Positions 46,279-63,258 of a stretch of DNA of 64,000 bases are shown in pieces. The notes under the pieces were generated by a model. That model saw only the letters and a list, made by a program, of their open reading frames with translations, did no database searches and was not told the origin of the DNA. Position numbers and translations under genes: made by a program. Each line of letters begins with the position of its first letter. Positions within the stretch are counted from its first letter, which is position 1. Source of the stretch: Patescibacteria group bacterium (GTDB lineage: Bacteria; Patescibacteriota; Patescibacteriia; JAQUQO01); assembly GCA_028716045.1 (NCBI GenBank), contig JAQUQO010000001.1, positions 128,942 through 192,941 of the forward strand. Direction: 5' to 3'.

Positions 46279-46288
46279 AAATTTTTCT

Positions 46289-47431: not shown

Positions 47432-47495
47432 CGGAGCTAATTTTTAATTTTAAAAAAGCCGGCATTGTGATGTCGGCTTTAATTTGTTTTTTAAT

Positions 47496-48299: not shown

Positions 48300-48412
48300 G
48301 GTTCTAATTCTCCCTGTGGTTTTTTATGGTTTTTAAAACAATTCCTTTATGTTATTTCAAAAAACAAACTTCTCCATAGCTTATCGTATTATCACTATTT
48401 TGTCAAGAGATA

Positions 48413-49294: not shown

Positions 49295-49404
49295 GACCTA
49301 AGTATAACATGGAAGCATGGGAACATAAAAACATAAAAACAAAAACATTCCAACTAAAGGATAGTCCACTTTGCTTGCCGGTGGGGCGTAAAAAGTATTT
49401 TAAA

Positions 49405-49593
49405 TTGTCATTGCGAACCCCGCTTTAGCGGGGTGAAGCAATCTCTAATACATATAGATTATTTACTCCCTCGACGGCTTGATTGAGTTCATTAAAACCA
49501 AATTTTGGACTCTTACAATAGTATAAACATAAAATAAAAAAGAGCGAATTTTGCGGGGAGGGGAGGTTCAGTTCCCGCCCTTTAAAATTCGCT
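49405..49593. repeat. intergenic block of palindromic elements between prfA and prmC
   Basis: attgcgaa-ccccgctttagcgggg-tgaagcaat (49405-49445). A 57-bp palindrome, agagcgaatttt-gcggggaggggaggttcagttcccgccc-tttaaaattcgctc, at ~49540-49593. The ccccgcNNagcgggg hairpin recurs at 54972. Confidence 0.5.
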
Positions 49594-49680
49594 CGCCCTC
49601 CTTTAACCCTTAAAATAAGGGCAAAAGAATGGGGACAAGTTGTATTTATAGATTATCAAGATATTGAAAATTTGTCAATT

Positions 49681-50733
49681 TTAAACTTCCTGTGCTTTTA
49701 GCGCCTCAATTATCTGGTCCAATCCGCCGTCTAGAATAGTTTGGATATTGTGCCAGCTTTGTTTGAGGCGGTGGTCGGTAATTCTGTCTTGCGGGAAGTT
49801 GTAAGTGCGGATTTTGTCTCCGCGTTCGCCGCTACCGCCCTCTTTCCTTTGAGCGGCCAGTTCTTTCTGTCTTTTTTCTTCAGCCATAGCCAAAAGGCGC
49901 GAGCGCAAGATTTGCATGGCCCGTTCTCTGTTTTGCGATTGCGAACGCTCGTCTTGGCAGGAAGCGACGGTATTAGTCGGCAGGTGAGTGATGCGTACTG
50001 CCGAGTAAGTGGTATTAACGCTTTGGCCGCCGTGGCCGCCGGCGCAGAAAGTGTCTACACGCAAATCTTTCGGTTCAATTTTAAAATCAATTTCCTCGGC
50101 TTCGGGCAGGACGGCGACGGTGGCGGCGGAAGTGTGAATGCGGCCGCTTTTTTCGGTTTCCGGAACGCGCTGGACGCGATGTCCGCCCATTTCGTATTTC
50201 AGGTTGCCGTAAACGTCTTTGCCGCTGATGCTGAAAATAACTTCTTTAAATCCACCGATGCCGATGTTATTAGAAGAGAGTAGTTTGGTTTTCCAGCCCC
50301 TCTTTTCGGCATAGCGGGAGTACATGCGGAAAAGGTCGGCGGCGAAAAGCGCGGATTCGTCTCCGCCGGTGCCGGCGCGGATTTCCATAATGACATTCTT
50401 TTTATCCAAAGGATTTTTGGGTTTAAACGCCGTTTTTATTTCCGCTTCTATTTTTTCTTCATCTTTATTTAAAATTTCCAATTCTTCTTCGGCCAGCTTT
50501 TTCATTTCCGGTTCCTCGGATTCTTTGATTGTTTCCTCGGCGTCTTTAATTCCTTTTTTTATTTTATCCAATTTTTTTTTGAGCTCCGCGAATTCTCGGT
50601 ATTCGTCAAACTCTTGCGAGGCGGCTTTTAATTTTTTTGGGTCATTAATAACCAAGGGGTCGGTAAGGTCCTTTTCTAGTTGGCGGAATTTAACTACCGC
50701 TTCGTCTAATTTTTTTAGTATTTTTTCGTCCAT
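49681..50733 (-). CDS. prfA: peptide chain release factor 1
   Basis: 350 aa. GGQ motif. PxT-type tripeptide (QRVPETE). Adjacent to prmC. Confidence 0.9.
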
Positions 50734-50751
50734 AAATAAAATATTTTTTTA

Positions 50752-50878
50752 GGGGGTTGGTCTTAAATCCCTCCCCCCTCCGGGGTACTCCCTTTGAGAA
50801 AGGGAGATAGAATGTCCTCCTCCTTTGTAAAAGGAGGTGCCCTGTCCTGAGCTTGTCGAAGGGGCGGGGTGGAGGATT
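50752..50878. repeat. ~130-bp modular GC-hairpin repeat, copy E (direct orientation), upstream flank of the DUF559 gene
   Basis: ttggtcttaaatccct...tttgagaaagggagata...cctcctttgtaaaaggagg...gtcgaaggggcggggtggaggatt. Shares its ends and 3' module with the copy at 59190-59326 (inverted), and its 5' end with the copy at 51237-51325. Confidence 0.65.
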
Positions 50879-51235
50879 TTAGCCCTCTTCTGTTTCCCGC
50901 ATTATTTTTCCAATCACACCCTCCATATTGTAAAAAATATCCAAGTTAGTAAATCGCAGAATTTTTAAGCCGGACTGTTTTAGATATTTTTCTCTCTCGG
51001 CATCTTTGATGATATTATCTTTGTCAAAATGTTGTCCCCCGTCAATTTCTATAATCAGTTTCTTTGTCGGGCAGTAAAAATCCACGATGTATTTTCCAAG
51101 GGGCTTTTGTCTGTAAAATTGTAAACCGTTTATTTGTTTATTTTTGATTTTACTCCACAAAATTATTTCCGTTTTAGTCATGTTGCCTCGCAGGGCCTTA
51201 GATGCGTTTTTAAGTTTAGGGCTATAATAGCGCAT
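50879..51235 (-). CDS. DUF559 / Vsr-like endonuclease-domain protein
   Basis: 118 aa. Conserved DUF559 core (LRGNMTKTEIILWSKIKNKQINGLQFYRQKPLGKYIVDFYCP...IEIDGGQH). Confidence 0.7.
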   Translation of the reverse strand: MRYYSPKLKNASKALRGNMTKTEIILWSKIKNKQINGLQFYRQKPLGKYIVDFYCPTKKLIIEIDGGQHFDKDNIIKDAEREKYLKQSGLKILRFTNLDIFYNMEGVIGKIMRETEEG

Positions 51236-51236
51236 G

Positions 51237-51325
51237 GGGTTGGTCTTAAATCCTCCCCTGCCTACCGGACTTCGGTGAGCTCAGTCGAACCGCAGACAGG
51301 CTTTTGAGAAAGGGAGAGGGGATTT
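51237..51325. repeat. modular repeat copy G (direct orientation), other flank of the DUF559 gene
   Basis: ttggtcttaaatcctcccctgcct...caggcttttgagaaagggagaggggattt. Terminal inverted similarity: taaatcctcccct versus agaggggattta. Confidence 0.6.
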
Positions 51326-51390
51326 AGTTTATTTTATCATACAAAAACCGTCCCGACTACGCGGAACGGTTTGGTGTATTTTAAAATCAG

Positions 51391-51675
51391 CTACTTTTCG
51401 TTTTTAGCGGCTCTTTTGGCGGAACGGGCGGCGTGTTTGGCCTTTTTGCCTTTTCTGGTTTTGGAGGCGATTTCTTTCTTACCAGCTTTTTCTTTGAATT
51501 TTTCCACGCGCCTGGCAGTGTCAACAAGTTTCTGTTTGCCGGTGTAAAAAGGATGGCACGCCGAACAAAGCTCAACGTTAATTTCTTTTTGCGTGGAGCC
51601 GGTAATAAAAGAATGGCCGCAGGCGCAAGTCACCTTGGCGTCATTGAAATATTCAGGATGAATTCCTTTTTTCAT
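51391..51675 (-). CDS. rpmE: 50S ribosomal protein L31 (start trimmed to MKKGIHPEY)
   Basis: Zinc-ribbon CxxH/CxxC motifs (VTCACGHSF...[10 protein letters not shown]). Lys-rich C-terminal extension. The ORF-track 52-aa N-extension is rejected. Confidence 0.85.
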
Positions 51676-51729
51676 ATTGGCATTTAAAATTTTATAGTAT
51701 TCCCAGTGTATCACAGCCCGATTTTTTTG

Positions 51730-51755
51730 GCAAGACCCGTCGGTCGCGACCGACG
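51730..51755. promoter_or_regulatory. perfect 26-bp palindrome GACCCGTCGGTCGCGACCGACGGGTC (family copy 2), in the rpmE upstream region
   Basis: It is its own reverse complement. It sits between an rpmE-proximal ttgcca -35 box and a plus-strand TTGACC. Confidence 0.45.
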
Positions 51756-51840
51756 GGTCAGGGGCTTGACCTTTAATTAAATACATGTTAAGGTTAAAAG
51801 CGATGAGGATTTTACTTGTAGTACATTTCAAAATTTTAAA

Positions 51841-52113
51841 ATGAAAGAGGTGACACTAATGCCAAACAAAAATAAGGAAGAAGTTAACATTAATATCGAA
51901 TGTTGGGTAGACAGAGGGTTGATGTCAGATCAAGTCGATCAATTAAAGAAAAAATTGGTAGATGCAGCAGTAAGGGCTATTGGGCTCACCCCCAAACTTG
52001 ATCCAGGTGGAGACGTTAAAATCACTGTTCACTATGAAATTTATAGTGGCAGAGAGAAGCGGGAAAGAGTTTCGGGAGCAACATTTTTGGGGCTACAAGA
52101 AAAGCCAATATAA
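51841..52113 (+). CDS. hypothetical small protein
   Basis: 90 aa. SD gaaagaggtgacactaATG. Weak promoter TTGACC at ~51764. Confidence 0.4.
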
Positions 52114-52207
52114 CTAACCATATTTAAGCCGAAAGACAATTATGTCAAGTAGGCTTTTTTTGTCAAGACAAGCCAGTCGCGACCGACGGGTCTTGACAAG
52201 CCGAGGG

Positions 52208-52236
52208 TTGACAGAATACTCATGATTTGTTATATT
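52208..52236 (+). promoter_or_regulatory. sigma70 promoter, TTGACA-17-TATATT. Immediately upstream at 52135-52200 is a ttgtcaagac...gtcttgacaag palindrome array.
   Basis: ttgaca at 52208-52213. tatatt at 52231-52236. Upstream, ttgtcaagac-aagccagtcgcgaccgacgg-gtcttgacaag is a 10-bp perfect IR around the degenerate family palindrome. Confidence 0.5.
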
Positions 52237-52275
52237 ATTATGATGTAAATTAATAACAAGCAGGAGGATAAAGTA

Positions 52276-52593
52276 ATGGCCGAAACAGAGACCTTTAGAG
52301 TTATAAGTGCGTCTTCTTCTTATGGAGTCGTTGTGGTTGTTAGCCCCGAAGATGCTAAACCCGGAGATAAAGAAGCCAAATTTTTTCTTCGCAACCTTAA
52401 TGTGGGTATTAAAGATTTTGAACCAGTAACCGAAGATGTAGCCCTTGGCTATTTTAGCGGAATCGCGGATGGTCTGGGCCGTGGAAAGAAACCGGCAAAT
52501 CACTTCAATTCACTCAAAGAAGTAGCGGAGTGGGCTGATAAAGCCAACGAGCAAGCAATGAAGGAATTGATTCGGCGAGTAAAGGAAAGTTAA
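52276..52593 (+). CDS. hypothetical small protein
   Basis: 105 aa. SD caggaggataaagtaATG. Confidence 0.4.
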   Translation: MAETETFRVISASSSYGVVVVVSPEDAKPGDKEAKFFLRNLNVGIKDFEPVTEDVALGYFSGIADGLGRGKKPANHFNSLKEVAEWADKANEQAMKELIRRVKES

Positions 52594-52703
52594 AAGCAGC
52601 GGGCAAAAGAGGAGATGGCAAAGAAGTAAATTTCTCAAAAAATCCGTGGTTCAAAGAGCTACGGATTTTTTTTATTAATCTAAGTTGGATATTATTCAGA
52701 CCC

Positions 52704-52732
52704 TTGACTTATTTTATATGATGTGCTATAGT
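52704..52732 (+). promoter_or_regulatory. sigma70 promoter, TTGACT-17-TATAGT
   Basis: ttgact at 52704-52709. tatagt at 52727-52732. Confidence 0.5.
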
Positions 52733-52783
52733 ATTATACTATAAATTAAGTATAACCAATCAACTATTTAAGGAGAGCAGACA

Positions 52784-52972
52784 ATGGAGGACAATAAGAA
52801 GCCCTTTGTAACCGACAAGATTGCAGCTGGCTACATGATTCAGCGGGGCGGTAAAAATCATGATGGCGAATGGCTGACGCCTGAAGGCGAGTGGAGCGAA
52901 AGTGTTTTCGATGCGGCTACCTGGCCGACCAAGAAGGCAGCAAGGAAAGCCTTGAAAACTTTGTTCGGATGA
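52784..52972 (+). CDS. hypothetical small protein
   Basis: 62 aa. SD aaggagagcagacaATG. Terminator at 53005-53040 (gacgaccc-accaacgc-ggggtcgtc followed by T-run). Confidence 0.4.
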   Translation: MEDNKKPFVTDKIAAGYMIQRGGKNHDGEWLTPEGEWSESVFDAATWPTKKAARKALKTLFG

Positions 52973-53082
52973 ATCTCGTAAAAGATTTGCTTCTACGGAA
53001 GCTATGACGACCCACCAACGCGGGGTCGTCTTTTTCTTTTCAAAAAATAACAATATTACGACTTGTTATTTTTTGGGCGTAT

Positions 53083-53793
53083 TTATTTTTGAGCCCGCAG
53101 AAGGCTAAGCTTTAATTCTTTTTTGTAATCAGAAGAACACTTTTTTAAAACAGAATCCAAGATATTTTCAAATACATTATCTAAACCGTATAGTCTAATT
53201 AATTTTTTCTTTAACTTATCTAAATTTTGCTTGATATGATTATTTTTGTCAAACAAAATATCGCAGCAAATCAAATTTGAAAAGAAGGGTCTCGCTACCA
53301 ATACATTATTGATGTAATTTTTGTATGTCCGTATGAAGATTTTTTTGTATTCTTTAACATTTATAGCCTCGTCAACAAGTAAGCCGTTGATTGTTTTTAT
53401 TTTCAAAGGTTTAATATCTCCATGGTGGCTAGAACCTTTCCAAAGTTTAGCATTCAGATTACAAAATTTTTCAAAATAATCCCAAGTACAAAAACCCATG
53501 TTAATTTTTACATTATTTATCTTCTGATCGCACCAAAAAAGAACGCCCTTTTTTAAAAGTTCTAATTTAGCGTCAACAAAATATTTTGAATTGTTAAAGA
53601 AACTTTCTTTTTTAATCAGACCGACGTTTTTCTTTTTAATAATAAAAATTACATCAATATCAGATTTTGCCGTGACAGAAAAGAATTTTCCGTGAACCAT
53701 TGAGCCGGTAAGTAAAATGCCCTCAAAAATATGTTTATCAAAGTAGAAAAATAATTTTTTAATAATCCCTAATCTTTTTCCGGTTTCGTTCAT
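53083..53793 (-). CDS. minimal Pol-beta-superfamily nucleotidyltransferase (ANT/Lnu-like or TA-type NTase), within an AT-rich island
   Basis: 236 aa. NTase signature LTGSMVHGKFFSVTAKSDIDVIFI, i.e. GS-x(9-13)-D-x-D. Very AT-rich codon usage, local GC about 20-28% against ~42% elsewhere. Confidence 0.6.
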   Translation of the reverse strand: MNETGKRLGIIKKLFFYFDKHIFEGILLTGSMVHGKFFSVTAKSDIDVIFIIKKKNVGLIKKESFFNNSKYFVDAKLELLKKGVLFWCDQKINNVKINMGFCTWDYFEKFCNLNAKLWKGSSHHGDIKPLKIKTINGLLVDEAINVKEYKKIFIRTYKNYINNVLVARPFFSNLICCDILFDKNNHIKQNLDKLKKKLIRLYGLDNVFENILDSVLKKCSSDYKKELKLSLLRAQK

Positions 53794-53805
53794 AATGATA
53801 GCTTA

Positions 53806-54234
53806 CTAAAATTTAGCCATTTCTTTTGATAAGAGTTGCTCAAAGCTTTTCATCTCGTTAGAAAATTTGTGCAAATTCCCATAGTTATCCGAAATGATTC
53901 TTGAATAATTAAGCAACTTTTTTGATAGTTCGTCTGAAATGAGTTGTTCTTTCACGGTTTCCCAAATTTCATCATTGCACCAATCTTGTTTGCCCATATT
54001 TATCCATTTAACATGATATTTTTGTATAAATTTTCCGTCTTTCAAAACTAATGCGTCCCATTCAGAAGATATCGGCCGGTCAGCAGGGAATGGTTTTTTA
54101 TCAATTAACACTTGTTTGACTACGCGATGGGCTTTGGTTGTATAGTCAAAAGAAATAGCCTCCTTTTCATTCACGGAAACTGATATAAAAAACATCGTGC
54201 TGGGCGTGGGGTTGTAATCTACTTCAATATCCAT
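53806..54234 (-). CDS. hypothetical protein cotranscribed upstream of the NTase (candidate partner/antitoxin)
   Basis: 142 aa with a 12-nt gap to the NTase gene. No HEPN Rx4-6H motif and no obvious HTH. Confidence 0.45.
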   Translation of the reverse strand: MDIEVDYNPTPSTMFFISVSVNEKEAISFDYTTKAHRVVKQVLIDKKPFPADRPISSEWDALVLKDGKFIQKYHVKWINMGKQDWCNDEIWETVKEQLISDELSKKLLNYSRIISDNYGNLHKFSNEMKSFEQLLSKEMAKF

Positions 54235-54347
54235 AATTTTTGGTTAAAATTTTTTATTTTTGGCGTCAGTATTGACATTTTTGGAATAATGTGCTACACT
54301 GTGATGGTATCCAGTAAGTATACTAGTATAAAAAGGAGGATTAAAAA

Positions 54348-54530
54348 ATGAAGCAAAGAATGTTCGTTTTTATCTTAGGCGTATTTTTATGTGGGGTGTC
54401 TGGTTATATGCCGGAACAATTTTCTGGGTTTTTGTGCTTTCTCGGTTTCACGGCCGTTTTGACGGCTGTATTACCAAGGAGGGTAAACAGGGCCCATGAA
54501 GACTGGCGTGCCAACTACCGACCGGGGTAA
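54348..54530 (+). CDS. small hydrophobic membrane protein
   Basis: 60 aa. SD aaaaggaggattaaaaaATG. Promoter TTGACA-17-TACACT at 54270-54298. Terminator at 54559-54595. Confidence 0.35.
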   Translation: MKQRMFVFILGVFLCGVSGYMPEQFSGFLCFLGFTAVLTAVLPRRVNRAHEDWRANYRPG

Positions 54531-54588
54531 AACCCTTGTCTGAAAGTGCGTAAACTACGAAGCTGGGTCGATTCTTGACCCAGCTTTT

Positions 54589-54924
54589 TTATTTTAGTAC
54601 ATCTAACATCTCTAATAATTCTTGCTTGATTTTGTCTGGCGGAGTTGTGCTTTTGTCGGGATATTGCCGTTTTAAAGCGTAAAGTTTTTGTTTTAAAGTT
54701 TCCAATTTTTCCATAACGGCATTATATTTTTCAGAACCGAGTTCATCTTCGGCCTTTTTGCCAGACAGATATGTTTCTATGACAAAAACACGACTGCCAA
54801 AACACGCCAGCCAAGAATTTGCCGTTTCTTGAAATTCCTTTTCAATTTTTTCTGGAGACCCGGAAATCATATCTTTGGCTTCGTCAACTCGACTTTTGGG
54901 ATGTTCCTTTTCAAATTTTTCCAT
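54589..54924 (-). CDS. hypothetical protein
   Basis: 111 aa, helical, charged. Confidence 0.4.
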   Translation of the reverse strand: MEKFEKEHPKSRVDEAKDMISGSPEKIEKEFQETANSWLACFGSRVFVIETYLSGKKAEDELGSEKYNAVMEKLETLKQKLYALKRQYPDKSTTPPDKIKQELLEMLDVLK

Positions 54925-54971
54925 ATTTTTTAATTTTTATTATTCCACATAACGTTTGCGTGTATCTGATG

Positions 54972-55040
54972 CCCCGCTAAGCGGGGTATGGGTGGAGGCT
55001 CTGCAAGAGCCGTAACCAGATATACGCCGTTATATGATGT
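54972..55040. repeat. hairpin ccccgctaagcgggg plus the second copy of the ggctctgcaagagcc-gtaaccagatatacgccgttat module
   Basis: 54995-55040 matches 37633-37678. The ccccgc..gcgggg hairpin matches 49418-49433. Confidence 0.55.
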
Positions 55041-55070
55041 ATGTTTTTCTTTTTCGGCCCGTTAGGGTTT

Positions 55071-55103
55071 GTTTTTGTATAACAAACGAATTCGATTTTT
55101 CAA
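55071..55103. repeat. left 33-bp terminal inverted repeat (TIR-L) of a ~2.1 kb cassette
   Basis: tttttgtataacaaacgaattcgatttttcaat matches the reverse complement of 57116-57148 at 32 of 33 positions. Contains the palindromic core cgaattcg. Confidence 0.7.
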
Positions 55104-55164
55104 TTTTAGCGAAGGGGCAGAGGGGATAGGGGTGAATGCCCCATAGCTAAATTTGTTGATTAGT

Positions 55165-55902
55165 TTATTTCGCCTTCATCCACAAAGCATTAAAAAATTT
55201 TATCAATATAGCTGAATCTTTGCTATTTAATTTTGCTACTAATGCTGGACTGTTGGATGCGGCATCTTTGATAGAAGGACCGAGAATATAACCTATATCA
55301 TCAATAATTATACAGCGATCATGTAAGTCGCTATACTTTTTATCGTTAAATTTTTTATATTCTTTTTTAAAACGGACAACGCGGCTGTCGAAGGATCCTC
55401 TTTTTTGGCCATAAATTAGTTTAATTTCTAGATTTTTTGGTATACTATCTAATACATTATCAAAGATTGTTTCATCAACCCACGAATCCGCCACCATGAC
55501 CCTTAGCTTTGTATTAGCGAATATGCTACGCAAGAATTTATCAAAAGTATGCGTACTTTTTTTGTCAAAAATATAAAGCTGGCTAGAGGTTGATAATATA
55601 CTATTTTGTTCAAAAATAGTTATATCGGTGAGGTGTTGGATACCAGATTCATTTACGAGACATATTCCAGGTCTGACTGGGTCTACCCAGCCCTGCTGTT
55701 GGGCGCGGTTGTAAAAAACCGGATTGTAAGATTTTTTTGTTAGCACTTTCGGCCAGTGACTGCGAATATCTGAAATAGTGATTTCATGTGATACCCGGCC
55801 TTTTGCACAGTGCGCAGCAATTATCAAAAACATCTGCTGCCCGCTCAAATCTTTAAGCGGGAATGTTTTTAAGAATGCTTTTAGGTTTTTAGAGAAGTTC
55901 AT
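55165..55902 (-). CDS. winged-helix-like DNA-binding domain fused to a PLD-like (H-x-R-x4-D-x6-G) putative nuclease domain
   Basis: 245 aa. The N-terminal ~80 aa are homologous to the C-terminal domain of the 160-aa neighbour (L-S/T-G...F-L/V-I/L-x-A-H/Y...W.K...Y..RA...GW-V/L-D...G.Y.LT). The C-terminus has KLRVMVAD...LHDRCIIIDDIGYILGPS, which matches PLD HKD-motif spacing with Arg in place of Lys. Confidence 0.5.
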   Translation of the reverse strand: MNFSKNLKAFLKTFPLKDLSGQQMFLIIAAHCAKGRVSHEITISDIRSHWPKVLTKKSYNPVFYNRAQQQGWVDPVRPGICLVNESGIQHLTDITIFEQNSILSTSSQLYIFDKKSTHTFDKFLRSIFANTKLRVMVADSWVDETIFDNVLDSIPKNLEIKLIYGQKRGSFDSRVVRFKKEYKKFNDKKYSDLHDRCIIIDDIGYILGPSIKDAASNSPALVAKLNSKDSAILIKFFNALWMKAK

Positions 55903-55911
55903 AGGTCGTGT

Positions 55912-56346
55912 TTAGAAAATTTCATCCCAGCGTGCAGTGAGGTGATAAGAACCATTTTTTGTGGCATCAAGCCAGCCATTCTCTTTTGCCCTGGTGCCAT
56001 ATATACCAGTTGTCAGTTTCCCCCCCAACAGTCTACTGTGTTTGTTCCAGCAGGTTTTTACATCTTCGCTCGTCACATCCAACTTCTTTTTACTTTTTGA
56101 AAGATATGCCACAACCAGTACAAATCTTTTAGGGCCAGTTAATCCTTTTCCGTATTCTTTAAAAAATGCCCTCGAATTTTGGTTGAAATTTATTTTTGAT
56201 TTTTGAGTATTGGCTAAAGCTGGTTTGTGTGGTTGGCGTGTCGTGGTATTATTTTTATAATTTAATTTTTCTAAATTAGAACGACATTCTTCGGCGAGTG
56301 TAATAATTTGTGTAAGCTTGTTACATATGTTTTGTATTTTCATACA
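55912..56346 (-). CDS. stand-alone paralog of the winged-helix-like DNA-binding domain (start trimmed to MKIQNICNKL)
   Basis: C-terminal domain LTGPKRFVLVVAYLSKSKKKLDVTSEDVKTCWNKHSRLLGGKLTTGIYGTRAKENGWLDATKNGSYHLTARW aligns with the N-terminus of the 245-aa protein. The untrimmed ORF overlaps the upstream gene by 38 nt. Confidence 0.5.
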   Translation of the reverse strand, partial: CMKIQNICNKLTQIITLAEECRSNLEKLNYKNNTTTRQPHKPALANTQKSKINFNQNSRAFFKEYGKGLTGPKRFVLVVAYLSKSKKKLDVTSEDVKTCWNKHSRLLGGKLTTGIYGTRAKENGWLDATKNGSYHLTARWDEIF

Positions 56347-56356
56347 GGTTGCGAAG

Positions 56357-56572
56357 TTAAATATGATATTTATAAATAGTGTCATCTTTTTCACGTTTAA
56401 TTTTTTCCCTTCTGAGCAAATAGAGTAAATTTACTCTGATGTCTTCGGGTTTTTCTTTATAACCAAACTTATCCTTAAGCTCTTTTTGGATTTCTTCGGC
56501 AGCTTTTGAATGTTTGCTAATCACCTTCAATATTTTTTCGGCAAGACTGACTTTTTGTTGTTTCTTTTTCAT
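56357..56572 (-). CDS. small winged-helix / HTH protein
   Basis: 71 aa. Pattern SLAEKILKVISKH..AEEIQKEL...RVNLLYLLRREKIKRE..DTIYKYHI is typical of a small wHTH regulator. Confidence 0.45.
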   Translation of the reverse strand: MKKKQQKVSLAEKILKVISKHSKAAEEIQKELKDKFGYKEKPEDIRVNLLYLLRREKIKREKDDTIYKYHI

Positions 56573-56590
56573 AATATATAATATTTAAAA

Positions 56591-56962
56591 TTATCTACCA
56601 TAAACCCACTTCCCGTCGTTTTTTTTGCGACCCAAAAGTTTTTTTTGTACAAGCCCTATCACTACACCTGATAATGTAGTAGTGGGATAAATATAGCCCA
56701 TTTGTTCAAGTTTAGATGCGATTTCTCCAAGAGTTTTAGGTTTAGAAAAAAAGTTTTCTTCTCGTAGCTCAACAATAAGATCTGAAGCCGCGCGTCTTTT
56801 ATTTTCATCCCGTTTCTTTACGATAGACTTGGTTGCCTTTGTTCTTATTTCTCGTACTACAGATGAACGTTCAAAGTCGGATAGTATGGCGGCCAACTCT
56901 TCTTTTGTTCCTTCTATTGTTATAGATGATCCCGTCTTAGATTTAATGATTGCTTTTGGCAT
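56591..56962 (-). CDS. hypothetical protein with a C-terminal winged-helix-like domain (first gene of the operon)
   Basis: 123 aa. C-terminal KTLGEIASKLEQMGYIYPTTTLSGVVIGLVQKKLLGRKKNDGKWVYG. Confidence 0.45.
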   Translation of the reverse strand: MPKAIIKSKTGSSITIEGTKEELAAILSDFERSSVVREIRTKATKSIVKKRDENKRRAASDLIVELREENFFSKPKTLGEIASKLEQMGYIYPTTTLSGVVIGLVQKKLLGRKKNDGKWVYGR

Positions 56963-56999
56963 AGATTTTAAGTTTTAGTTACTTATTATTAATAATCTT

Positions 57000-57055
57000 A
57001 TTGTATATTATTGCTAAAATTTTGTCAAGTGTCCGCAATATATTTAGCAATAATA
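57000..57055 (-). promoter_or_regulatory. sigma70 promoter (TTGACA-17-TACAAT) overlapped by a perfect 13-bp inverted-repeat operator
   Basis: Minus-strand read: TTGACA (plus 57023-57028), 17 nt, TACAAT (plus 57000-57005). IR arms tattattgctaaa (57006-57018) and tttagcaataata (57043-57055). One arm lies in the -35/-10 spacer, a classic autorepressor layout. Confidence 0.6.
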
Positions 57056-57115
57056 GTAGTATTTAAAAAATGTCTGCCAATATTTTATTGGTAGACATTT
57101 TTATCCCCCTATTAA

Positions 57116-57148
57116 ATTGAAAAATCGAATTCGTTTGTTATATAAAAA
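57116..57148. repeat. right 33-bp terminal inverted repeat (TIR-R)
   Basis: attgaaaaatcgaattcgtttgttatataaaaa. Its reverse complement equals 55071-55103 with one mismatch. Confidence 0.7.
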
Positions 57149-57349
57149 TGTCGCCGTCTGGCGAAAAGGAAAAGTATATTTCATATAACTACCTATATCC
57201 CAACTTGTTGTTTTTTGCGCTAAGATATGATAAAATTTTTAGTAAATTGAGGTTATACCCCCAAGGGGTATAACCTCCCGTATTTTATTTACAGTAATAC
57301 TTTCACGAACATATTTATTTTATCCCATTCACCTCAAAAATTCAACCCA

Positions 57350-57378
57350 TTGCCAAGATTTTTGCCCTATGTTATAAT
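57350..57378 (+). promoter_or_regulatory. sigma70 promoter, TTGCCA-17-TATAAT, for rpsB-tsf. Followed by a ~120-nt leader with hairpin atcccga-gca-ttcgggat.
   Basis: ttgcca at 57350-57355. tataat at 57373-57378. Leader hairpin at 57443-57460. Confidence 0.5.
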
Positions 57379-57502
57379 CGGTATTACTTATTAAATCTCT
57401 CACATTTTAGGATTATTTGGCGGCCTTGTCTCATCCCGAGCATTCGGGATTGGGATTTGCCAAATAAGATGACTAAAATGGAGGCCTAAAAGGAAAAAAT
57501 TT

Positions 57503-58237
57503 ATGACCAAGATTCCATCTCTTTTAGAGATGCTCAAAGCGGGCGTGCATTTCGGACACCAAGCGTCGCGCTGGCATCCTAAAATGGGCCAATACATTTT
57601 TGGCCAAAGAAACGGTGTCAATATTATTGATTTGGAGAAGACCCAGGTTAAACTTGAGGAAGCTCTGAATTTTCTCAAAGAAACTGCCCAAAAAGGCGGT
57701 GTCATTTTATTTTTAGGCACCAAAAAGCAGGCGCAGGCCCTGGTGAAAAAAGCCGCCGAGGATTGCGGTATGCCTTATGTGACCGAGCGCTGGCTGGGTG
57801 GAACAATTACCAATTTCAGCGTTATTTCCCGTTTGCTCAAAAAATTGAAAAAGGTGGAAGCCGAGCGCGTTTCCGGCGAGTTGGGAAAATACACCAAGAA
57901 AGAGCAGTTGGTTATTAATCGCGAAGCGGAAAAAATGGATAAGGTTGTTGGTGGTATTAAAAATTTAGAAAAAATTCCCACGGCTTTATTTATAGTTGAC
58001 GTCAGAAAGGAAGAAACCGCCATCAGGGAAGCCAGAGCTAAAAATATCCCGATAGTCGCGGTTTGCGACACTAATGTCAATCCGGAAATGGCTGATTATC
58101 CGATTCCGGCCAATGATGATGCCAGCAAGTCAATTGAACTTATTTTAAATTTAGCGTCGGCGGCGGTCAAAGAAGGCAAAGGAGCTGTTGTCAAAGAAGA
58201 AAAGAAGGAAGAAAAAGTCAAAAAAGAAAAAAAGTAA
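57503..58237 (+). CDS. rpsB: 30S ribosomal protein S2
   Basis: 244 aa. MLKAGVHFGHQASRWHPKM. Lys/Glu-rich C-terminal tail. Confidence 0.9.
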   Translation: MTKIPSLLEMLKAGVHFGHQASRWHPKMGQYIFGQRNGVNIIDLEKTQVKLEEALNFLKETAQKGGVILFLGTKKQAQALVKKAAEDCGMPYVTERWLGGTITNFSVISRLLKKLKKVEAERVSGELGKYTKKEQLVINREAEKMDKVVGGIKNLEKIPTALFIVDVRKEETAIREARAKNIPIVAVCDTNVNPEMADYPIPANDDASKSIELILNLASAAVKEGKGAVVKEEKKEEKVKKEKK

Positions 58238-58326
58238 CAGGGGTTCTCCCCTGACAAGGGGAGTTAGAGGGGTTTAAAACCGTAGAAAAAGCGTAACCCC
58301 CCCTTCCCCCCTTATCAGGGGGCTGA
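58238..58326. repeat. GC-rich hairpin cluster between rpsB and tsf
   Basis: agggg-ttct-cccct. ctcccct-gaca-aggggag. cccccc-ttatca-gggggg. Confidence 0.5.
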
Positions 58327-58357
58327 ATAGTTATCAATTACTAATAGTTATATTTAT

Positions 58358-59173
58358 ATGTCCGTTGACCAAAATATTGTCAAACTTCGCGAATTAACCG
58401 GCGCGGGAATTTTGGATTGTAAAAAGGCGCTGGAAGAATCCGGCGGGGACGTGGATAAGGCACAGGAAATTTTAAGAAAGAAAGGAATCGCCAAAGCCGC
58501 CAAAAGAGCCGAGAGAGAAGCCAAAGAAGGCATTGTCAAAGTCGGAACTAATGGCGATAAGACCACGGGGTATATGGTGGAATTTAATTCCGAAACCGAT
58601 TTTGTCGCCCGCAACGAAAAATTTTTGGGATTTACCGAAGAAGTTTTTAATCTTTTTAAAAATAAAGAGCCGCAAGATTTAGATTCTTTATTTAACTTGC
58701 CGCTGGCTGACGGCAATACGGTAAAGGATTCTCTCGGCAGTTTGAGCGGTGTTATCGGCGAAAAATTGGACATCAAAAGATGCGCTCTTGTCTCCGGCGG
58801 CACAGTCGCCGCTTATTCCCATCTGGGCGGGAGAATCGGCGTGCTCGTGGCGCTGGATAAATCCGGAGAGGATGAGCTGGCTTATGACGTGGCTATGCAT
58901 ATTGCCGCTTCCAATCCTAAATATCTAAGCCCGGAGAATGTTCCAGCCGAGGAAGTTGCCAAAGAAAAAGAAATTTATCGCGAGCAATTGAAAAATGAAG
59001 GCAAGCCGGAGAATATCATTGATAAAATTTTGGCGGGGAAGATGGAAAAATATTACGGAGAAATTTGTCTGCTCAATCAAGTATTTATCAAAAATGAAGA
59101 TTTGACTGTCGGCCAGCTGCTTGACGGCCGGGGAGTCAAAATTAAGGATTTTTTCCGTTTTAGTTTAAATTAA
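58358..59173 (+). CDS. tsf: elongation factor Ts
   Basis: 271 aa. N-terminal UBA-like LRELTGAGILDCKKAL. Conserved EF-Ts core. Confidence 0.9.
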   Translation: MSVDQNIVKLRELTGAGILDCKKALEESGGDVDKAQEILRKKGIAKAAKRAEREAKEGIVKVGTNGDKTTGYMVEFNSETDFVARNEKFLGFTEEVFNLFKNKEPQDLDSLFNLPLADGNTVKDSLGSLSGVIGEKLDIKRCALVSGGTVAAYSHLGGRIGVLVALDKSGEDELAYDVAMHIAASNPKYLSPENVPAEEVAKEKEIYREQLKNEGKPENIIDKILAGKMEKYYGEICLLNQVFIKNEDLTVGQLLDGRGVKIKDFFRFSLN

Positions 59174-59189
59174 AAAAGCATAAAGGTTT

Positions 59190-59326
59190 AAAATCCTCCG
59201 CCCCGCCCCTTCGACAAGCTTAGGACAGGGCACCTCCTTTTACAAAGGAGGAGGACATTCTTATCTCCCTTTCTCAAAAGCCTGCCTGCCGGCAGGCAGG
59301 GGAGGTAAAGAGGGATTTAAGACCAA
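59190..59326. repeat. modular ~135-bp repeat, copy F, inverted relative to the copies flanking the DUF559 gene
   Basis: Its reverse complement matches copy E (50752-50878) along ttggtcttaaatccct and ttgagaaagggagataagaatgtcctcctcctttgtaaaaggaggtgccctgtcct-agcttgtcgaaggggcgggg-ggaggatt. Its central module is cccctgcctgccggcaggcagg, as in copy G. Confidence 0.65.
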
Positions 59327-59356
59327 TTTCTCACTCCTAAATTAAAATTTATTTTT

Positions 59357-60193
59357 ATGCGCGTGCTCAAGGTACAATTCACCCATTGGCATAAAGTTTA
59401 TTATTTTACGACCGACGATGAAACTCTCAATGTCGGCGATTATGTTATTGTGGAAACGGAACTGGGAATGGAACTGGGGAAAGTAGATGGTTTCACTACC
59501 ATGGAAAGAGTAAAGGAGCTCTTGAAAGAGCCGTCGGAAGAAGAGAAACAGGCCGGTTCGCCGGAGGAAATCAAGCCGATTGTCCGCCGCGCCACTTCCG
59601 GAGATTTGGACAAAGCGCGGGAGAACGAGTCGCGTCATGACGAAGCCATGGAGGTTTGTCGTCAGCTCATCAAAAAACACAGTTTGCCGATGAAACTCGT
59701 GGACGTTCATTTTTCTTATGACGGCGGGCGGATAACTTTCGCTTTTATCGCCGACGGGCGCATTGATTTCAGAAATTTAGTCAAAGATTTAACTCGCCGT
59801 TTTCAGAAATCCATCCGGATGCACCAAATCGGCGTGCGCGATGAAGCCAAAATATCCGGCGATGTCGGCCCTTGCGGCCGGACGCTTTGCTGTAAAAAAA
59901 TTCTTAGAGAAAATTACGGCGGCGTTAATACGGAAATGGCTTATGAACAACAGGTGGCGCATCGCGGGCTGGAAAGATTATCCGGGCAATGTGGGCGACT
60001 GAAATGCTGTTTGCGCTACGAATTGCCGATTTACGAGGAATTAAAAAAGAAATTGCCGGCTATTGATAGCACCGTCAAGACATCCAAAGGCAAGGGCAAG
60101 GTGATTGGCCATGAGATTTTAAAGCAAGCGGTAAAAGTTCAGTTGGACGAGGATACGATTATAACAGTGCCGGCGAACGAGATAAAAAAATAG
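59357..60193 (+). CDS. PSP1 C-terminal domain protein (RicT/YaaT-like)
   Basis: 278 aa. N-terminal VKVQFTHWHKVYYFTTDDETLNVGDYVIVETELG. C-terminal Cys-rich CGRTLCCKK...CGRLKCCL, as in RicT. Confidence 0.6.
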   Translation: MRVLKVQFTHWHKVYYFTTDDETLNVGDYVIVETELGMELGKVDGFTTMERVKELLKEPSEEEKQAGSPEEIKPIVRRATSGDLDKARENESRHDEAMEVCRQLIKKHSLPMKLVDVHFSYDGGRITFAFIADGRIDFRNLVKDLTRRFQKSIRMHQIGVRDEAKISGDVGPCGRTLCCKKILRENYGGVNTEMAYEQQVAHRGLERLSGQCGRLKCCLRYELPIYEELKKKLPAIDSTVKTSKGKGKVIGHEILKQAVKVQLDEDTIITVPANEIKK

Positions 60194-60225
60194 ATTTATT
60201 GATATAGCGGTATAGTAAATACAAT

Positions 60226-60254
60226 TTGACTTGACTGGCAATTTGAGTTATATT
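60226..60254 (+). promoter_or_regulatory. sigma70 promoter, TTGACT-17-TATATT
   Basis: ttgact at 60226-60231. tatatt at 60249-60254. Confidence 0.5.
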
Positions 60255-60297
60255 GAAGACATATGGATTGTTTCTTGATAATAAATGATTTTTTAAT

Positions 60298-60630
60298 TTG
60301 GGAAAATTTTTAAAGATAGAGAAGGAGGGAGTAGTAATGGATGAGTTAGAATTCAAAAAAATACTTGAATCCATGCAAAAGGAGCAACGCGAGAGGTTTG
60401 AAAAAATTGAATCCGCACTGACGGCGCGAAACAAAAGGTTTGAGAGGATTGAAGCCGTTTTAGATGCCCAAAACGTCAAACTTAGGGAAGTTGAATTACG
60501 TTTAAGTGAGCATGATTTCGTTTTTGAGCTTGGAGGAGGCGCGGCAAACTTAAAAATTCCCGTCCGGAAAAAGATGATACTCCACCGCACTATTGATGAC
60601 ACAGAAATTGTTCAAGATTACGATGCTTAA
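60298..60630 (+). CDS. hypothetical coiled-coil protein
   Basis: 110 aa. SD gaaggagggagtagtaATG. Terminator at 60653-60686 (aaaccgc-ttataaatatgg-gcggtttt followed by T-run). Confidence 0.4.
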   Translation: MGKFLKIEKEGVVMDELEFKKILESMQKEQRERFEKIESALTARNKRFERIEAVLDAQNVKLREVELRLSEHDFVFELGGGAANLKIPVRKKMILHRTIDDTEIVQDYDA

Positions 60631-60720
60631 TTTTTAACCATTTGTTCTTTCAAAACCGCTTATAAATATGGGCGGTTTTTTATTTTAACGCAGTTTAAAA
60701 TTGAACCAATCATTATTTTT

Positions 60721-60806
60721 TCCCTCCTTAGACAAGGAGGGGAAGGGGGTGGTTGGATTTTAAAATAACAAACTCCCTCTTCGCTCCCCCTTAGCTAAGG
60801 GGGAGA
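60721..60806. repeat. GC-rich hairpin pair upstream of gap
   Basis: ccctcctt-agac-aaggaggg. ctccccctta-gc-taagggggag. Confidence 0.5.
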
Positions 60807-60916
60807 ATTTTTATTATTATCCAATTTTCTCTCTTCTTTATTGGTGTTTGGAGTTTGGTTATTTTCTCTAAAATTTGCTATAATAAATATAAGTTAAAAA
60901 CTAATCACAATATCTT

Positions 60917-61930
60917 ATGTCTAAAAAAATACGCGTGGCTATCAATGGCTTTGGCCGTATTGGCCGCACTACTTTTAAAGCCGGATTTGGCAAAGAGGGG
61001 ATTGAGTGGGTAGCGGTTAATGATTTGACCGATGCTAAAACCTTGGCTTATCTTTTAAAGTATGATTCAGTTTATCATGAGTATCACCGTAAGGTTAGAG
61101 CTACCAAAAACGAGATTATTGTTGATGGCCAGAGAATCAAAGTTTTTGCCGAACGCGACCCCAAGAATTTGCCGTGGAAAGAATTGAACATTGATGTGGT
61201 TTTGGAATGCACCGGCATTTTTACTAATGAAGAAGGAGCCAGCCAACATCTCACCGCCGGCGCCAAGAGAGTGATTATTTCCGCTCCGGCCAAAGGCGGC
61301 CATGTGCCGACTTATGTTTTGGGAGTGAACAGCCATAAATACAAGAAAAGCGAAAAGGTGATAAACAATGCTTCTTGCACCACCAATTGTATTGCTCCGG
61401 TGGCGGCGATTATCCAAAGCCATTTTGGAATTAAAAAAGCGTTGATGACCACCATTCACGCCTATACCGCCGACCAAAATTTAGTGGACGGGCCGCACAA
61501 GGATTTGCGCCGCGCCCGCTCGGCCGCCATCAATATTATTCCCACCACTACCGGCGCTGCCATTTCTACCGGCGAAATTATTCCGGCTATCAGGGGCAAA
61601 TTTGACGGCCTCGCTATCCGCGTGCCAGTGGCCGTGGGTTCGCTGTCTGATTTCACTTTTTTGACAAAAAAGAAGACGACCGTGGAGAGAGTAAATAACA
61701 TTTTTAGAAAGATGGCCAAGCACCCGTTTTACAAAAATATACTCGCGGTCACCGACAGGCCGATTGTTTCATCTGATATTATCGGCAATGAATATTCGGC
61801 TGTTGTTGATTTATCTTTAACAAAAGTGGTTGATGGCGATTTGGTAAAAGTCATCGCTTGGTATGATAATGAATTAGGTTATTCGCACCGCTTGGCGGAA
61901 TTGGCAAGGGAAGTCGGCAGAAAAATTTAA
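60917..61930 (+). CDS. gap: glyceraldehyde-3-phosphate dehydrogenase (type I)
   Basis: 337 aa. NAD-binding INGFGRIGR. Active site ASCTTNCIAP. Confidence 0.9.
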   Translation: MSKKIRVAINGFGRIGRTTFKAGFGKEGIEWVAVNDLTDAKTLAYLLKYDSVYHEYHRKVRATKNEIIVDGQRIKVFAERDPKNLPWKELNIDVVLECTGIFTNEEGASQHLTAGAKRVIISAPAKGGHVPTYVLGVNSHKYKKSEKVINNASCTTNCIAPVAAIIQSHFGIKKALMTTIHAYTADQNLVDGPHKDLRRARSAAINIIPTTTGAAISTGEIIPAIRGKFDGLAIRVPVAVGSLSDFTFLTKKKTTVERVNNIFRKMAKHPFYKNILAVTDRPIVSSDIIGNEYSAVVDLSLTKVVDGDLVKVIAWYDNELGYSHRLAELAREVGRKI

Positions 61931-61942
61931 TAACATTTAAAT

Positions 61943-63130: not shown

Positions 63131-63135
63131 TTTTA

Positions 63136-63209
63136 TCCCCCTGATAAGAGGGACTATGGGGGTTTGAGAATTGATTAACCCCCCCCAACCCCCCTTGTCA
63201 GGGGGGGGT
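63136..63209. repeat. GC-rich hairpin pair after pgk
   Basis: ccccct-gataagag-gg.. and ccccccttgtcagggggggg, the same family as the cluster at 58238. Confidence 0.45.
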
Positions 63210-63258
63210 ATAGTAAACAATTTTTGTTTCATAATTCTTAATTCATAATTCAAAACTT

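Follow-up and report, generated by a model that had tools for sequence, protein, structure and literature searches.

A four-gene operon lies between rpmE and rpsB in the stretch of Patescibacteria DNA that we analyzed (the window, 64,000 nucleotides), and it is an uncharacterised variant of an already known candidate anti-phage family, PDC-S05. We lean towards explaining the locus overall as an acquired candidate defence (or toxin-antitoxin-like) operon, with an inverted repeat around it that is specific to this locus and lies outside the gene module. The four genes are co-directional, as an earlier note on this DNA had claimed; all are on the minus strand and follow a single promoter in the order A, B, C, D. 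The features, with their positions in the window, are as follows.

55019..55106, no strand: left inverted-repeat arm, by alignment, with a near-perfect core (55072-55106) and a degenerate outer part (55019-55056)
55056..55079, plus strand: terminator-like hairpin and T-run in the left arm, pointing into the segment
55165..55902, minus strand: gene D, 245 aa, with a winged helix (residues 1-96, nt 55615-55902) and a PLD-fold domain (residues 105-245, nt 55168-55590)
55267..55323, minus strand: codons for H194-D-R196-x4-D201-x6-G208-P-S210-x-K212, from family conservation
55912..56343, minus strand: gene C, 143 aa, whose winged helix is homologous to that at the N-terminal end of D; the start is that of the gene callers, and a GTG extension to 56394 is possible
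56357..56572, minus strand: gene B, 71 aa, consisting of a winged helix on its own, which is of the A type and weakly BlaI-like
56591..56962, minus strand: gene A, 123 aa, first of the leader pair, with a beta-hairpin and a long helix ahead of a C-terminal winged helix
57000..57028, minus strand: sigma-70-type promoter, TTGACA-17-TACAAT, 11/12 matches, conserved at the nucleotide level in loci L095 and L097
57006-57018 / 57043-57055, no strand: perfect 13-nt palindrome TATTATTGCTAAA / TTTAGCAATAATA, a putative operator that flanks the -35 and overlaps the spacer and the -10
57066..57102, no strand: 17-nt AT-rich hairpin (94% paired; loop of 3 nt) in the interval from the right arm to the promoter, with A and T runs beside it
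57114..57199, no strand: right inverted-repeat arm, by alignment, with its core at 57114-57148 and a degenerate outer part at 57162-57199
57141..57164, minus strand: terminator-like hairpin and T-run in the right arm, pointing into the segment

Gene C encodes a free copy of the winged helix of D

The earlier note had seen one winged-helix domain in three of the proteins. Winged helices are present, but they form two pairs: C shares its domain with the N-terminus of D (BLASTP 5e-13; hhalign 8e-24), and B shares another with the C-terminus of A (hhalign 2.5e-5), with undetectable similarity between the A-B domain and the C-D domain. Pfam yielded nothing usable for the four proteins, with no match at all for D, and NCBIfam gave only weak hints to VPA1262 and BlaI, the latter for B (E=1e-3). 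The third gene is probably the 143-aa one starting at 56343 and not a 160-aa ORF. The N-terminal part of its product consists of an amphipathic region and a linker (secondary structure judged by eye).

C had been described as a stand-alone copy of the DNA-binding domain of the effector. Indeed, it is encoded just upstream of D, and this arrangement is kept in 33 of 45 loci; in 12 loci C does not adjoin D. Of the 45 loci, 41 have one or more small winged-helix partners, and D is found alone in four. Locus L095 encodes a 111-aa protein followed by a 266-aa protein, the N-terminus of which matches the family of the 111-aa protein and the C-terminus the HDR domain of D, suggesting that the same free-copy logic is used there with another class of winged helix. 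The winged helices of C and D were 28.8% identical within a locus versus 28.1% between loci (permutation p=0.057), and since the first value exceeds the second only marginally, a matched specificity of C and D is at most conjectural.

A and B form a portable leader with its own promoter

A and B co-occur in L095 and L097, and the pair recurs together with its promoter, at 73-84% identity, ahead of unrelated effectors. These effectors include AF_1680, Hypoth_Ymh with Mrr, and an HDR-PLD protein whose winged helix is of a different kind; in L097 the leader is followed by an Mrr-type nuclease. The position equivalent to that of D is occupied in the sister operons by a Hypoth_Ymh protein and then an Mrr_cat nuclease, or by AF_1680. 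The Hypoth_Ymh protein contains an Rx4H motif, found by eye, which we take to be HEPN-like.

The predicted promoter and the perfect 13-bp palindrome overlapping it were both confirmed. None of 100 shuffles of the upstream 180 nt reached the length of this palindrome, and its half AGCAATAATATACAATAAG is conserved over the -10 in other A-B modules. Self-regulation of the operon, as proposed earlier, is plausible given this operator-like motif in related leader modules. A strong upstream palindrome was found in just 2 of 29 cases (the window strain and L001), for which the ORF starts are crude. The conserved operator half-site was visible solely in comparison with the closer A-B modules. The hairpin at 57066-57102 lies outside the homology that related leader modules have in common, and it may act as an insulator or terminator.

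D combines a winged helix with a PLD-fold domain of the HDR clade

The model of D confidently shows a winged helix joined to a PLD fold, which belongs to the HDR clade (MIT_C-like, PDC-S05 superfamily), and D is a predicted nuclease-like enzyme. The AF2 model (pLDDT 86.7) has the alpha/beta sandwich of the Nuc type, and Foldseek aligned it over its full length, both domains included, with TrmBL2 (2e-10) and also found NucT, Nuc, Zucchini and PLD3 (1e-5 to 1e-7); the strongest fold matches were FAM83A and FAM83B. The fold check on the 245-aa protein proposed in the earlier note thus returned both domains. Searching the PDB by sequence with D and the D-family profile gave nothing significant. 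The closest solved sequence relative is the membrane-binding C-domain of MITD1 (2ymb), which the profile matched weakly (E=0.03), aligning HDR with the IHDR of MITD1. Pfam MIT_C was matched by 3 of 87 superfamily members and PLDc_2 by 14 of 51 members of the D family.

Residues 193-210 contain the motif LHDRCIIIDD..GPS, with the H-x-basic-x4-D-x6-G spacing and the Arg in place of the canonical Lys that had been noticed before. Compared with the canonical HxK(x)4D(x)6GSxN, H194, D201 and G208 are correctly spaced, Lys is replaced by Arg196, which is invariant across the family, and GSxN by GPSxK. H194, R196, G208, P209 and K212 are invariant across the 51 D-family members, and H194, R196, G208 and S210 across 87 distant superfamily representatives; D139 is nearly invariant, and H194-D195-R196 invariant or nearly so.

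Alternatively, D could be a non-enzymatic DNA-binding regulator like TrmB or TrmBL2, with a PLD domain for dimerisation or ligand binding, and the cassette could be purely regulatory or nucleoid-associated. TrmBL2, its best full-length structural match, is a non-catalytic DNA-binding protein, the PLD folds of FAM83A and FAM83B, the top fold matches, and of MITD1, the closest in sequence, are not known to be catalytic, and Pfam Regulator_TrmB was weakly matched by 4 of the 51 family members (best 0.006). The missing canonical Lys also fits such a role, and the Asn of GSxN is replaced as well. We nevertheless consider it unlikely. In a superfamily of more than 2000 cluster representatives, the H, D, R, D, G and S of the PLD signature vary hardly or not at all, which is the pattern of an active or phosphate-binding site and not of a scaffold. 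Moreover, the HDR domain is known from fusions with TIR, methyltransferase and integrase modules, occurs in defence islands and is the core of PDC-S05, which is reported to be protective, and the sister operons have their Hypoth_Ymh protein and Mrr_cat nuclease, or AF_1680, in the place of D. We prefer to read D as the nuclease-like effector of the operon.

The inverted repeat is particular to this locus

The repeat pair, first described as 33 bp with 32 of 33 positions matching, proved to be 35 nt long with 34 of 35 positions paired (55072-55106 / 57114-57148; 97% complementary), so that the original coordinates were off by 1-3 nt. It continues outward imperfectly, with indels, to about 55019 and 57199 (about 88 nt). 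The 29-nt perfect core occurs just twice in the 64-kb window, the part of the ~0.9-Mb genome that this count covers, and 0 of 100 shuffles gave a match. Two NCBI MAGs and two independent Logan assemblies agree exactly in the sequence of the repeat; hence, it is not an assembly artefact.

Both flanks of the segment are strongly structured. A dispersed repeat overlapping the outer part of the left arm recurs at 37634-37671, a repeat copy adjoins a RAYT-like ORF, and the genome carries this RAYT-like ORF and REP hairpins. Most likely, the arms stem from a structured intergenic repeat of this genome with its REP and RAYT elements, of which they would be two copies that have diverged, or else they are the two halves of a single palindrome; the operon would now sit between them. 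If the arms have a function at all, it would be transcriptional insulation and not transposition or phase-variable inversion. The sharp inner edge and the near-perfect identity of the repeat core are outside what an origin from repeat copies or a palindrome accounts for.

The earlier note had suggested that the repeats mark a mobile cassette. The segment would then be a non-autonomous transposon or mobile insertion cassette with 35-nt IS-type ends and the four genes as passengers, mobilised by a transposase encoded elsewhere. A long near-perfect inverted repeat does bracket exactly a self-contained, low-GC acquired operon, a recombinase is missing inside as it is in mobile insertion cassettes, and the RAYT-like ORF and REP hairpins represent mobile-repeat machinery in the genome. 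Yet neither the 35-nt nor the 88-nt arms have a target-site duplication beside them (the longest direct repeat is a 3-nt CCA), the similarity fades outward instead of stopping sharply at element termini, and the rest of the 64-kb window contains no further copy of the core. Searching for the core in 185,579 representative genomes, which apparently do not include the source genome, gave one chance match, and metagenome and viral collections gave none. None of 30 testable related operons is flanked by the repeats, and homology with the relatives stops inside the arms, which thus lie outside the homologous region. We regard a mobile element as quite improbable.

It is highly improbable that the segment is invertible (phase-variable) and that the repeats serve as its recombination sites for a site-specific recombinase encoded elsewhere, another option raised in the earlier note: the length of the repeats is typical of invertible segments and the core contains a short palindrome, CGAATTCG, but the promoter, operator and all four genes are internal to the arms, so that inversion would not affect expression, no recombinase is encoded inside the segment (as noted before) or annotated in the gene table for 45165-64000, all four assemblies (at least two read sets) have a single orientation at 100% identity, and relatives lack the repeats. 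Going by these comparisons of sequence, the inverted repeat is locus-specific and lies outside the conserved gene module.

The operon was acquired in a variable islet

The GC content of the repeat-bounded segment is 34.3% (genes 30-37%), higher than the 25-30% estimated earlier, versus 42.0% for the window; the flanking rpsB and tsf have 43-44%. The low-GC tract runs past the repeat to ~53080. The four-gene operon is conserved across differing genomic contexts, and genes for restriction-modification and other defence functions abound around related operons. Relatives were not found on cultured plasmids and phages by tblastn or in IMG/VR. In L092 and L093, which are the closest relatives by S2 identity, rpmE and rpsB lie ~0.85 kb apart, versus 5.8 kb at the window locus; the S2 proteins of these relatives are just 73-75% identical to that of the window, and therefore this empty-site comparison is one of synteny alone, without intergenic sequence. 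Because related operons occupy unrelated contexts and the S2-nearest relatives lack the segment between rpmE and rpsB, the segment is, as far as gene order and homology tell, horizontally acquired and situated within a variable islet between these genes of a Patescibacteria genome, in agreement with the earlier proposal of horizontal acquisition. No RNA families were found over 54300-57600 (Rfam, gathering threshold and E<=1), and ARAGORN detected no tRNA as a possible integration site.

Proposed mechanism and significance

We infer both nuclease activity of D and a decoy logic for the operon. A and B would autoregulate it. D would dimerise through its PLD domain, like Nuc and BfiI, the dimer would form a single metal-independent phosphodiesterase site, and the winged helix would direct D to nucleic acid. 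C would gate or antagonise D, via the same ligand or by binding D, and this gating would spare self until infection or loss of the operon. It is possible, if rather doubtful, that the operon stands for a hitherto undescribed class of modular prokaryotic conflict systems made of an A-B leader, interchangeable effectors and a free winged-helix decoy or gate. In such a class, the leader with its own operator would drive interchangeable effectors that each join a winged helix at the N-terminus to a domain of the HDR-PLD or HEPN-like (Hypoth_Ymh, AF_1680) type. The HDR-PLD effectors would be paired with a free copy of their own winged helix, which would keep them off their nucleic-acid target or self DNA until infection.

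HDR-type PLD domains are the core of the abundant candidate defence family PDC-S05 and are also present in Menshen NsnC, BREX BrxL and human MITD1. The operon provides a minimal test case from a reduced Patescibacteria genome, with one effector, one free copy of a DNA-binding domain and a reusable two-protein leader. HDR-dependent catalysis, if shown, would inform several larger systems, and HDR-PLD domains that are truly catalytic would be relevant to the question of an enzymatic role of eukaryotic MITD1 and BREX BrxL. Gating of D by C, if shown, would represent an immunity logic of a simple kind, a 'decoy of the targeting domain'. The terminal inverted repeats are a local peculiarity and not a new type of mobile element.

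Comparison with known systems

The segment resembles mobile insertion cassettes in having inverted repeats around a transposase-free gene set, but here there is neither a target-site duplication nor another copy, conservation of the cargo does not extend to the repeats, and the similarity of the repeats fades outward. BrxR, CapW and C-protein regulators are distributed upstream of varied effector sets. Like the BrxR/CapW-type regulators and the C-proteins of restriction-modification systems, A-B is a small winged-helix leader with a palindromic operator upstream of unrelated effector sets; unlike them, it consists of two proteins instead of one, has no WYL or WCX domain and no detected sequence relationship to them, and its regulatory role is putative.

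D has the same layout as TrmB and TrmBL2, a winged helix at the N-terminus and a PLD-like fold after it, and they are its best full-length structural match. However, its sequence identity to them is 10-12%, and D does not belong to Pfam TrmB or Regulator_TrmB. The TrmB family is regulatory or chromatin-associated and has no link to defence islands, whereas the D superfamily keeps an invariant HDR..D..G.S. With Nuc, NucT, Zucchini, BfiI, NgoAVII and SauUSI, D shares the spacing H-x-basic-x4-D-x6-G, and with BfiI and NgoAVII also the combination of a PLD domain and a separate DNA-binding domain. It differs from these single-HKD PLD nucleases and restriction enzymes by the changes of Lys to Arg and GSxN to GPSxK and has no detectable sequence similarity to the members in the PDB. 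In contrast to BfiI-like type II restriction-modification, the operon and its neighbourhood in the window contain no methyltransferase; some related operons adjoin separate, divergently transcribed methyltransferase modules.

The HDR motif and an acidic residue after beta-2 are found in PB-PLD1 of Menshen NsnC, MIT_C of MITD1 and the C-terminus of BrxL (PMC12065111). D carries both marks of this clade, H194-D-R196 before beta-5 and D139 after beta-2, and the HDR domains of all four proteins are alike putative as enzymes. NsnC models were matched weakly by D (6e-4) and by 9 of the 87 superfamily members. The operon differs from Menshen and BREX in that it lacks BREX genes, an inactive-PIN N-domain and a ParB-like NsnA or NsnB, and the N-terminal domain of D is a winged helix.

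All 87 sampled superfamily members matched PADLOC PDC-S05 (best 2e-35). The C-terminal domain of D matches both PDC-S05 models, with 4.7e-15 (positions 169-286 of 306) and 4.4e-13 (158-281 of 285), and both D and PDC-S05 are found in defence-island contexts. Protection of E. coli against T7, T5 and T4 has been reported for another representative of PDC-S05 (10.1101/2024.09.26.614923), which was described as carrying a RhuM domain; D lacks such a domain. We do not regard D itself as a RhuM protein, as it fails to align with the RhuM/Fic neighbour in L005. The match of D to the first model covers just the last 118 of 306 positions instead of the full length, and D has its own N-terminal winged helix. 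Whereas PDC-S05 is a single-gene candidate, D is part of a conserved operon with a free winged-helix paralogue and the A-B leader.

Gene content, promoter and composition of the operon

The operon consists of four tightly packed genes, A to D, all on the minus strand and all inside the two arms of an inverted repeat.

Genes and control elements of the operon (window coordinates)
56591-56962, minus strand: gene A, 123 aa
56357-56572, minus strand: gene B, 71 aa
55912-56343, minus strand: gene C, 143 aa, start as set by public gene callers
55165-55902, minus strand: gene D, 245 aa
57028-57000, minus strand: promoter, TTGACA-17-TACAAT
57006-57018 / 57043-57055: perfect 13-nt palindrome, putative operator

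The 160-aa version of C in an earlier note on this sequence begins at a GTG farther upstream. The promoter and the palindrome described there are both present, and we compared this region with L095 and L097, two loci that carry A and B. Nucleotide homology of 73-75% identity runs from 56354 to 57016-57029, that is, from the stop codon of B to the -35 hexamer. Conserved within it are AGCAATAATATACAATAAG over the -10 and another motif, GCAATAAGTAA, in the leader. In a further related locus, L001, a perfect palindrome of its own, 14 nt long, occupies the corresponding position. On these motifs, it is plausible that A and/or B autoregulate the operon, in line with the self-regulation proposed earlier.

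The segment has a GC content of 34.3%, compared with 42.0% for the window and 43-44% for rpsB and tsf, so the 25-30% given earlier was overstated. Low GC runs on leftward to about 53080.

The operon is one module of a small variable islet

A fixed syntenic position of the operon would have spoken against the earlier interpretation. Contigs encoding the nearest S2 proteins (73-75% identical to that of the window) have the gene order prfA, rpmE, rpsB, tsf, PSP1, gap, pgk. The rpmE-rpsB interval measures about 0.85 kb in L092 and L093 and 5.8 kb in the window (51675 to 57503), where the repeat-bounded operon shares it with three short plus-strand ORFs and with three minus-strand ORFs that form a low-GC block. 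Hence, the position is not fixed, and the operon is one module of a small variable islet. Together with the GC difference, this supports the horizontal origin that had been proposed. Three orphan genes of this islet adjoin the operon (53083-54924, minus strand; 236, 142 and 111 aa; 28-36% GC) and have no Pfam match; on visual inspection, a GS...DxD motif resembling that of nucleotidyltransferases is seen in the 236-aa protein.

From about 57385, in the rpsB leader just beyond the rpsB promoter (57350-57378), the sequence is again conserved with the relatives. This leader (57385-57500) is conserved at the nucleotide level, in relatives whose S2 proteins are only 73-75% identical. It had no Rfam match at E<=1 and may be a variant of an S2 autoregulatory leader.

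The inverted repeat is not part of the gene module

A repeat search placed the arms at 55072-55106 and 57114-57148 (35 nt, 97% complementary, 2007 nt between them), in agreement with the inverted repeat reported earlier. The repeat core includes CGAATTCG. Its 29-nt perfect stretch occurs at these two sites only within the 64-kb window and was matched in 0 of 100 dinucleotide shuffles. By local alignment, the similarity, broken by mismatches and small indels, extends outward as far as about 55019 and 57199, so that each arm spans about 88 nt in all, with a sharp inner and a decaying outer edge. The locus is 100% identical, and in one orientation, in two NCBI MAGs and two independent Logan assemblies, which rules out an assembly artefact.

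D-family homology stops at the stop codon of D and A-B homology stops at the -35, leaving both arms and a 17-nt hairpin (57066-57102) outside all conserved sequence. The inverted repeat is not part of the gene module.

Structured elements in and around the repeat arms
54946-55036, plus strand: Y-shaped (three-way junction) folding element, z=-4.4, just left of the left arm
55056-55069, plus strand: left-arm G+C hairpin with T-run, pointing into the segment
57164-57151, minus strand: right-arm G+C hairpin with T-run, pointing into the segment
57249-57277: perfect 13-bp G+C-rich hairpin with T-tail, between the right arm and the rpsB promoter

The hairpin sequences of the two arms are unlike each other and both fold, and folding of both flanks is strong (z=-4.4 for 54940-55085, z=-5.3 for 57105-57300). 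We read the arms as diverged copies of one structured intergenic repeat, both facing inward, or as halves of one palindrome, with an acquired operon now lying between them. The arms may insulate the operon transcriptionally.

The mobile or invertible cassette proposed earlier was not supported. For a transposon, we found no target-site duplication at the arms and no flanking inverted repeat among 30 distinct related operons, each flanked by 350 bp or more of sequence on either side; the longest matches there were 8-14 nt, which is chance level, against 35 nt in the window strain. A search for the core 20-mer returned a single chance match in 185,579 representative genomes and none in metagenome and viral collections. 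An invertible switch is disfavored by the position of the promoter inside the segment, as it would travel with the genes on inversion.

Repeats are also found elsewhere in the window. The repeat to which the outer part of the left arm belongs has another copy at 37634-37671 (95% identity across 38 nt), directly adjoining a RAYT/IS200-like ORF flanked by inverted REP hairpins.

Repeats elsewhere in the window
37074-37574, minus strand: 166-aa ORF, weak IS200-like Y1 transposase match (E=2e-4, just under the Pfam cut-off)
37046-37071, 37605-37630 and 38483-38508: hairpin GGTTCAATCTTGCAGATTGAACC, inverted copies around the 166-aa ORF
50809-50886 / 59184-59261: 78 nt, 95%, one example of the long inverted intergenic repeats of the window

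The 166-aa ORF and its hairpins form an arrangement typical of a REP-associated tyrosine transposase. The 3' half of the Y-shaped element also recurs beside this ORF, as the partial copy at 37634-37671; the element has no Rfam match and may represent either a small RNA or a DNA structure of the REP type. The 78-nt repeat, a G/C-rich REP-like intergenic element with further matching pieces at 51240-51317 and 59264-59326, brackets an 8.3-kb stretch from rpmE to tsf with the whole islet inside. Rfam also reports a tRNA at 35258-35340 (plus strand, 51.5 bits), and ARAGORN finds no tRNA in the whole window.

Winged-helix partners recur with different effectors

All four proteins look like winged-helix proteins, which fall into two sequence classes. 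For A and D the assignment comes from models, for C from homology to the modelled domain of D, and for B from a weak BlaI match and its similarity to A. The C-terminus of C is homologous to the N-terminus of D (BLASTP 5e-13, hhalign 8e-24), which bears out the free paralogue of D's winged helix described earlier. B is a relative of A's C-terminal half (hhalign 2.5e-5), all B-type ORFs were recovered by an iterated A profile, and A shows no resemblance to the C-terminus of C or the N-terminus of D. Instead of three proteins sharing one domain, as the earlier note had it, there are two pairs, C/D and A/B. Pfam contains no entry for the A or the C family. The putative recognition helix is conserved, as YNPxFYxRAQxEGWV in D and FNxFYxxxAKExDWV in C, with positions common to both families. 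As a direct measure of whether C and D have matched specificity, identity over the shared C-D domain is 28.8% within a locus versus 28.1% between loci, a marginal difference (p=0.057).

Searches for the 245-aa gene located it in 80 metagenome loci and in several MAG contigs; cultured plasmids, phages and IMG/VR yielded no relatives. We analyzed 45 non-redundant loci with enough upstream sequence by ORF calling and iterated HMMER. C lies directly upstream of D in 33 of them, and 41 include one or more neighbouring small winged-helix genes. The simplest architecture is C-D and the longest A-A-A-C-D, and the A-B-C-D order of the window is also present in L002, L014, L015 and L090. The contexts vary between loci, with many restriction-modification and other defence genes among the neighbours.

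The closest homologues of A reach 84% identity, nearer than any homologue of D, and their neighbourhoods identify the A-B pair as a portable leader before other effectors. In L095, A-B is followed by a 111-aa and then a 266-aa protein; in L097 by Hypoth_Ymh, DUF8426/Mrr_cat and a 168-aa protein. L099 has A and an 88-aa protein ahead of AF_1680 and a 160-aa protein. Pairwise HMMER showed that the 266-aa protein of L095 is an A-type winged helix fused to a PLD domain with the HDR motif (H194-D195-R196 in D, with Arg for the canonical Lys), preceded by the 111-aa protein as a free A-type paralogue. Hypoth_Ymh proteins likewise begin with an A-type winged helix, and the free 88-aa protein of L099 is similar to the N-terminal part of Hypoth_Ymh proteins encoded at other loci. 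The L095 pair shows that an effector accompanied by a free copy of its own winged helix recurs with a second HDR-PLD effector and the other winged-helix class. This recurrence is the best comparative support for the immunity or competition proposed earlier, which is still an inference.

A-B-led operons are repeatedly divergent to a DNA methyltransferase gene (L002 3400-4818, L095 3247-4824, L097 3727-4821). The methyltransferase of L002 and that of L095 are fusions with LexA_DNA_bind and Peptidase_S24, with an HTH_3 gene and a nuclease-like gene beyond. This suggests a linked, possibly damage-responsive, restriction-modification-like module; it is not in the window.

Protein D belongs to a PLD-like superfamily with an HDR motif

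D itself has no direct Pfam match. Over residues 105-233 it is similar to the PADLOC candidate PDC-S05 (4.7e-15 and 4.4e-13) and weakly to NsnC. The D family comprises proteins of 245-257 aa from Patescibacteria, Acidobacteria and other uncultured lineages. Across 51 aligned members, H194, R196, G208, P209 and K212 are invariant, and 14 of the 51 reach Pfam PLDc_2. The AlphaFold model built from this alignment is confident (pLDDT 86.7), and Foldseek matched it to TrmBL2 over both domains (2e-10), followed by NucT, Nuc, FAM83, Zucchini and PLD3. The model and these matches bear out the earlier fold predictions and support D as a predicted fusion of a winged helix to a PLD-like domain.

Exhaustive HMMER gave a small full-length family, with 38 cluster representatives under 1e-30, and a superfamily of about 2200 representatives for the C-terminal domain. 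A set of 87 distant members shares H194, R196, G208 and S210 throughout, and D195, D201 and D139 are nearly invariant. All 87 match PDC-S05 (best 2e-35), and a few match NsnC, MkoC or DrmC. Some of the 87 are fused to TIR, methyltransferase or integrase domains.

Overall, the earlier observation was confirmed, apart from its GC figure and paralogue count. A nuclease chemistry of D, the role proposed for C and anti-phage activity are candidate functions. One PDC-S05 representative was reported to protect E. coli against T7, T5 and T4 (10.1101/2024.09.26.614923). The Arg in place of Lys in D is the hallmark of a known PLD sub-clade: the PB-PLD1 domain of Menshen is described with a conserved HDR motif plus, after beta-2, an acidic residue, and the same site is reported in the MIT_C domain of MITD1 and the C-terminus of many BrxL proteins (PMC12065111, 2025), a study that raised, and did not test, an enzyme role for HDR-type domains. 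Consistent with this sub-clade, the best PDB sequence match of the superfamily profile is MITD1, with IHDR aligned on HDR (E=0.03). The most fitting place for the system is in the candidate defence superfamily of HDR / MIT_C-like PLD (PDC-S05) proteins, where it adds a new variant of operon type.
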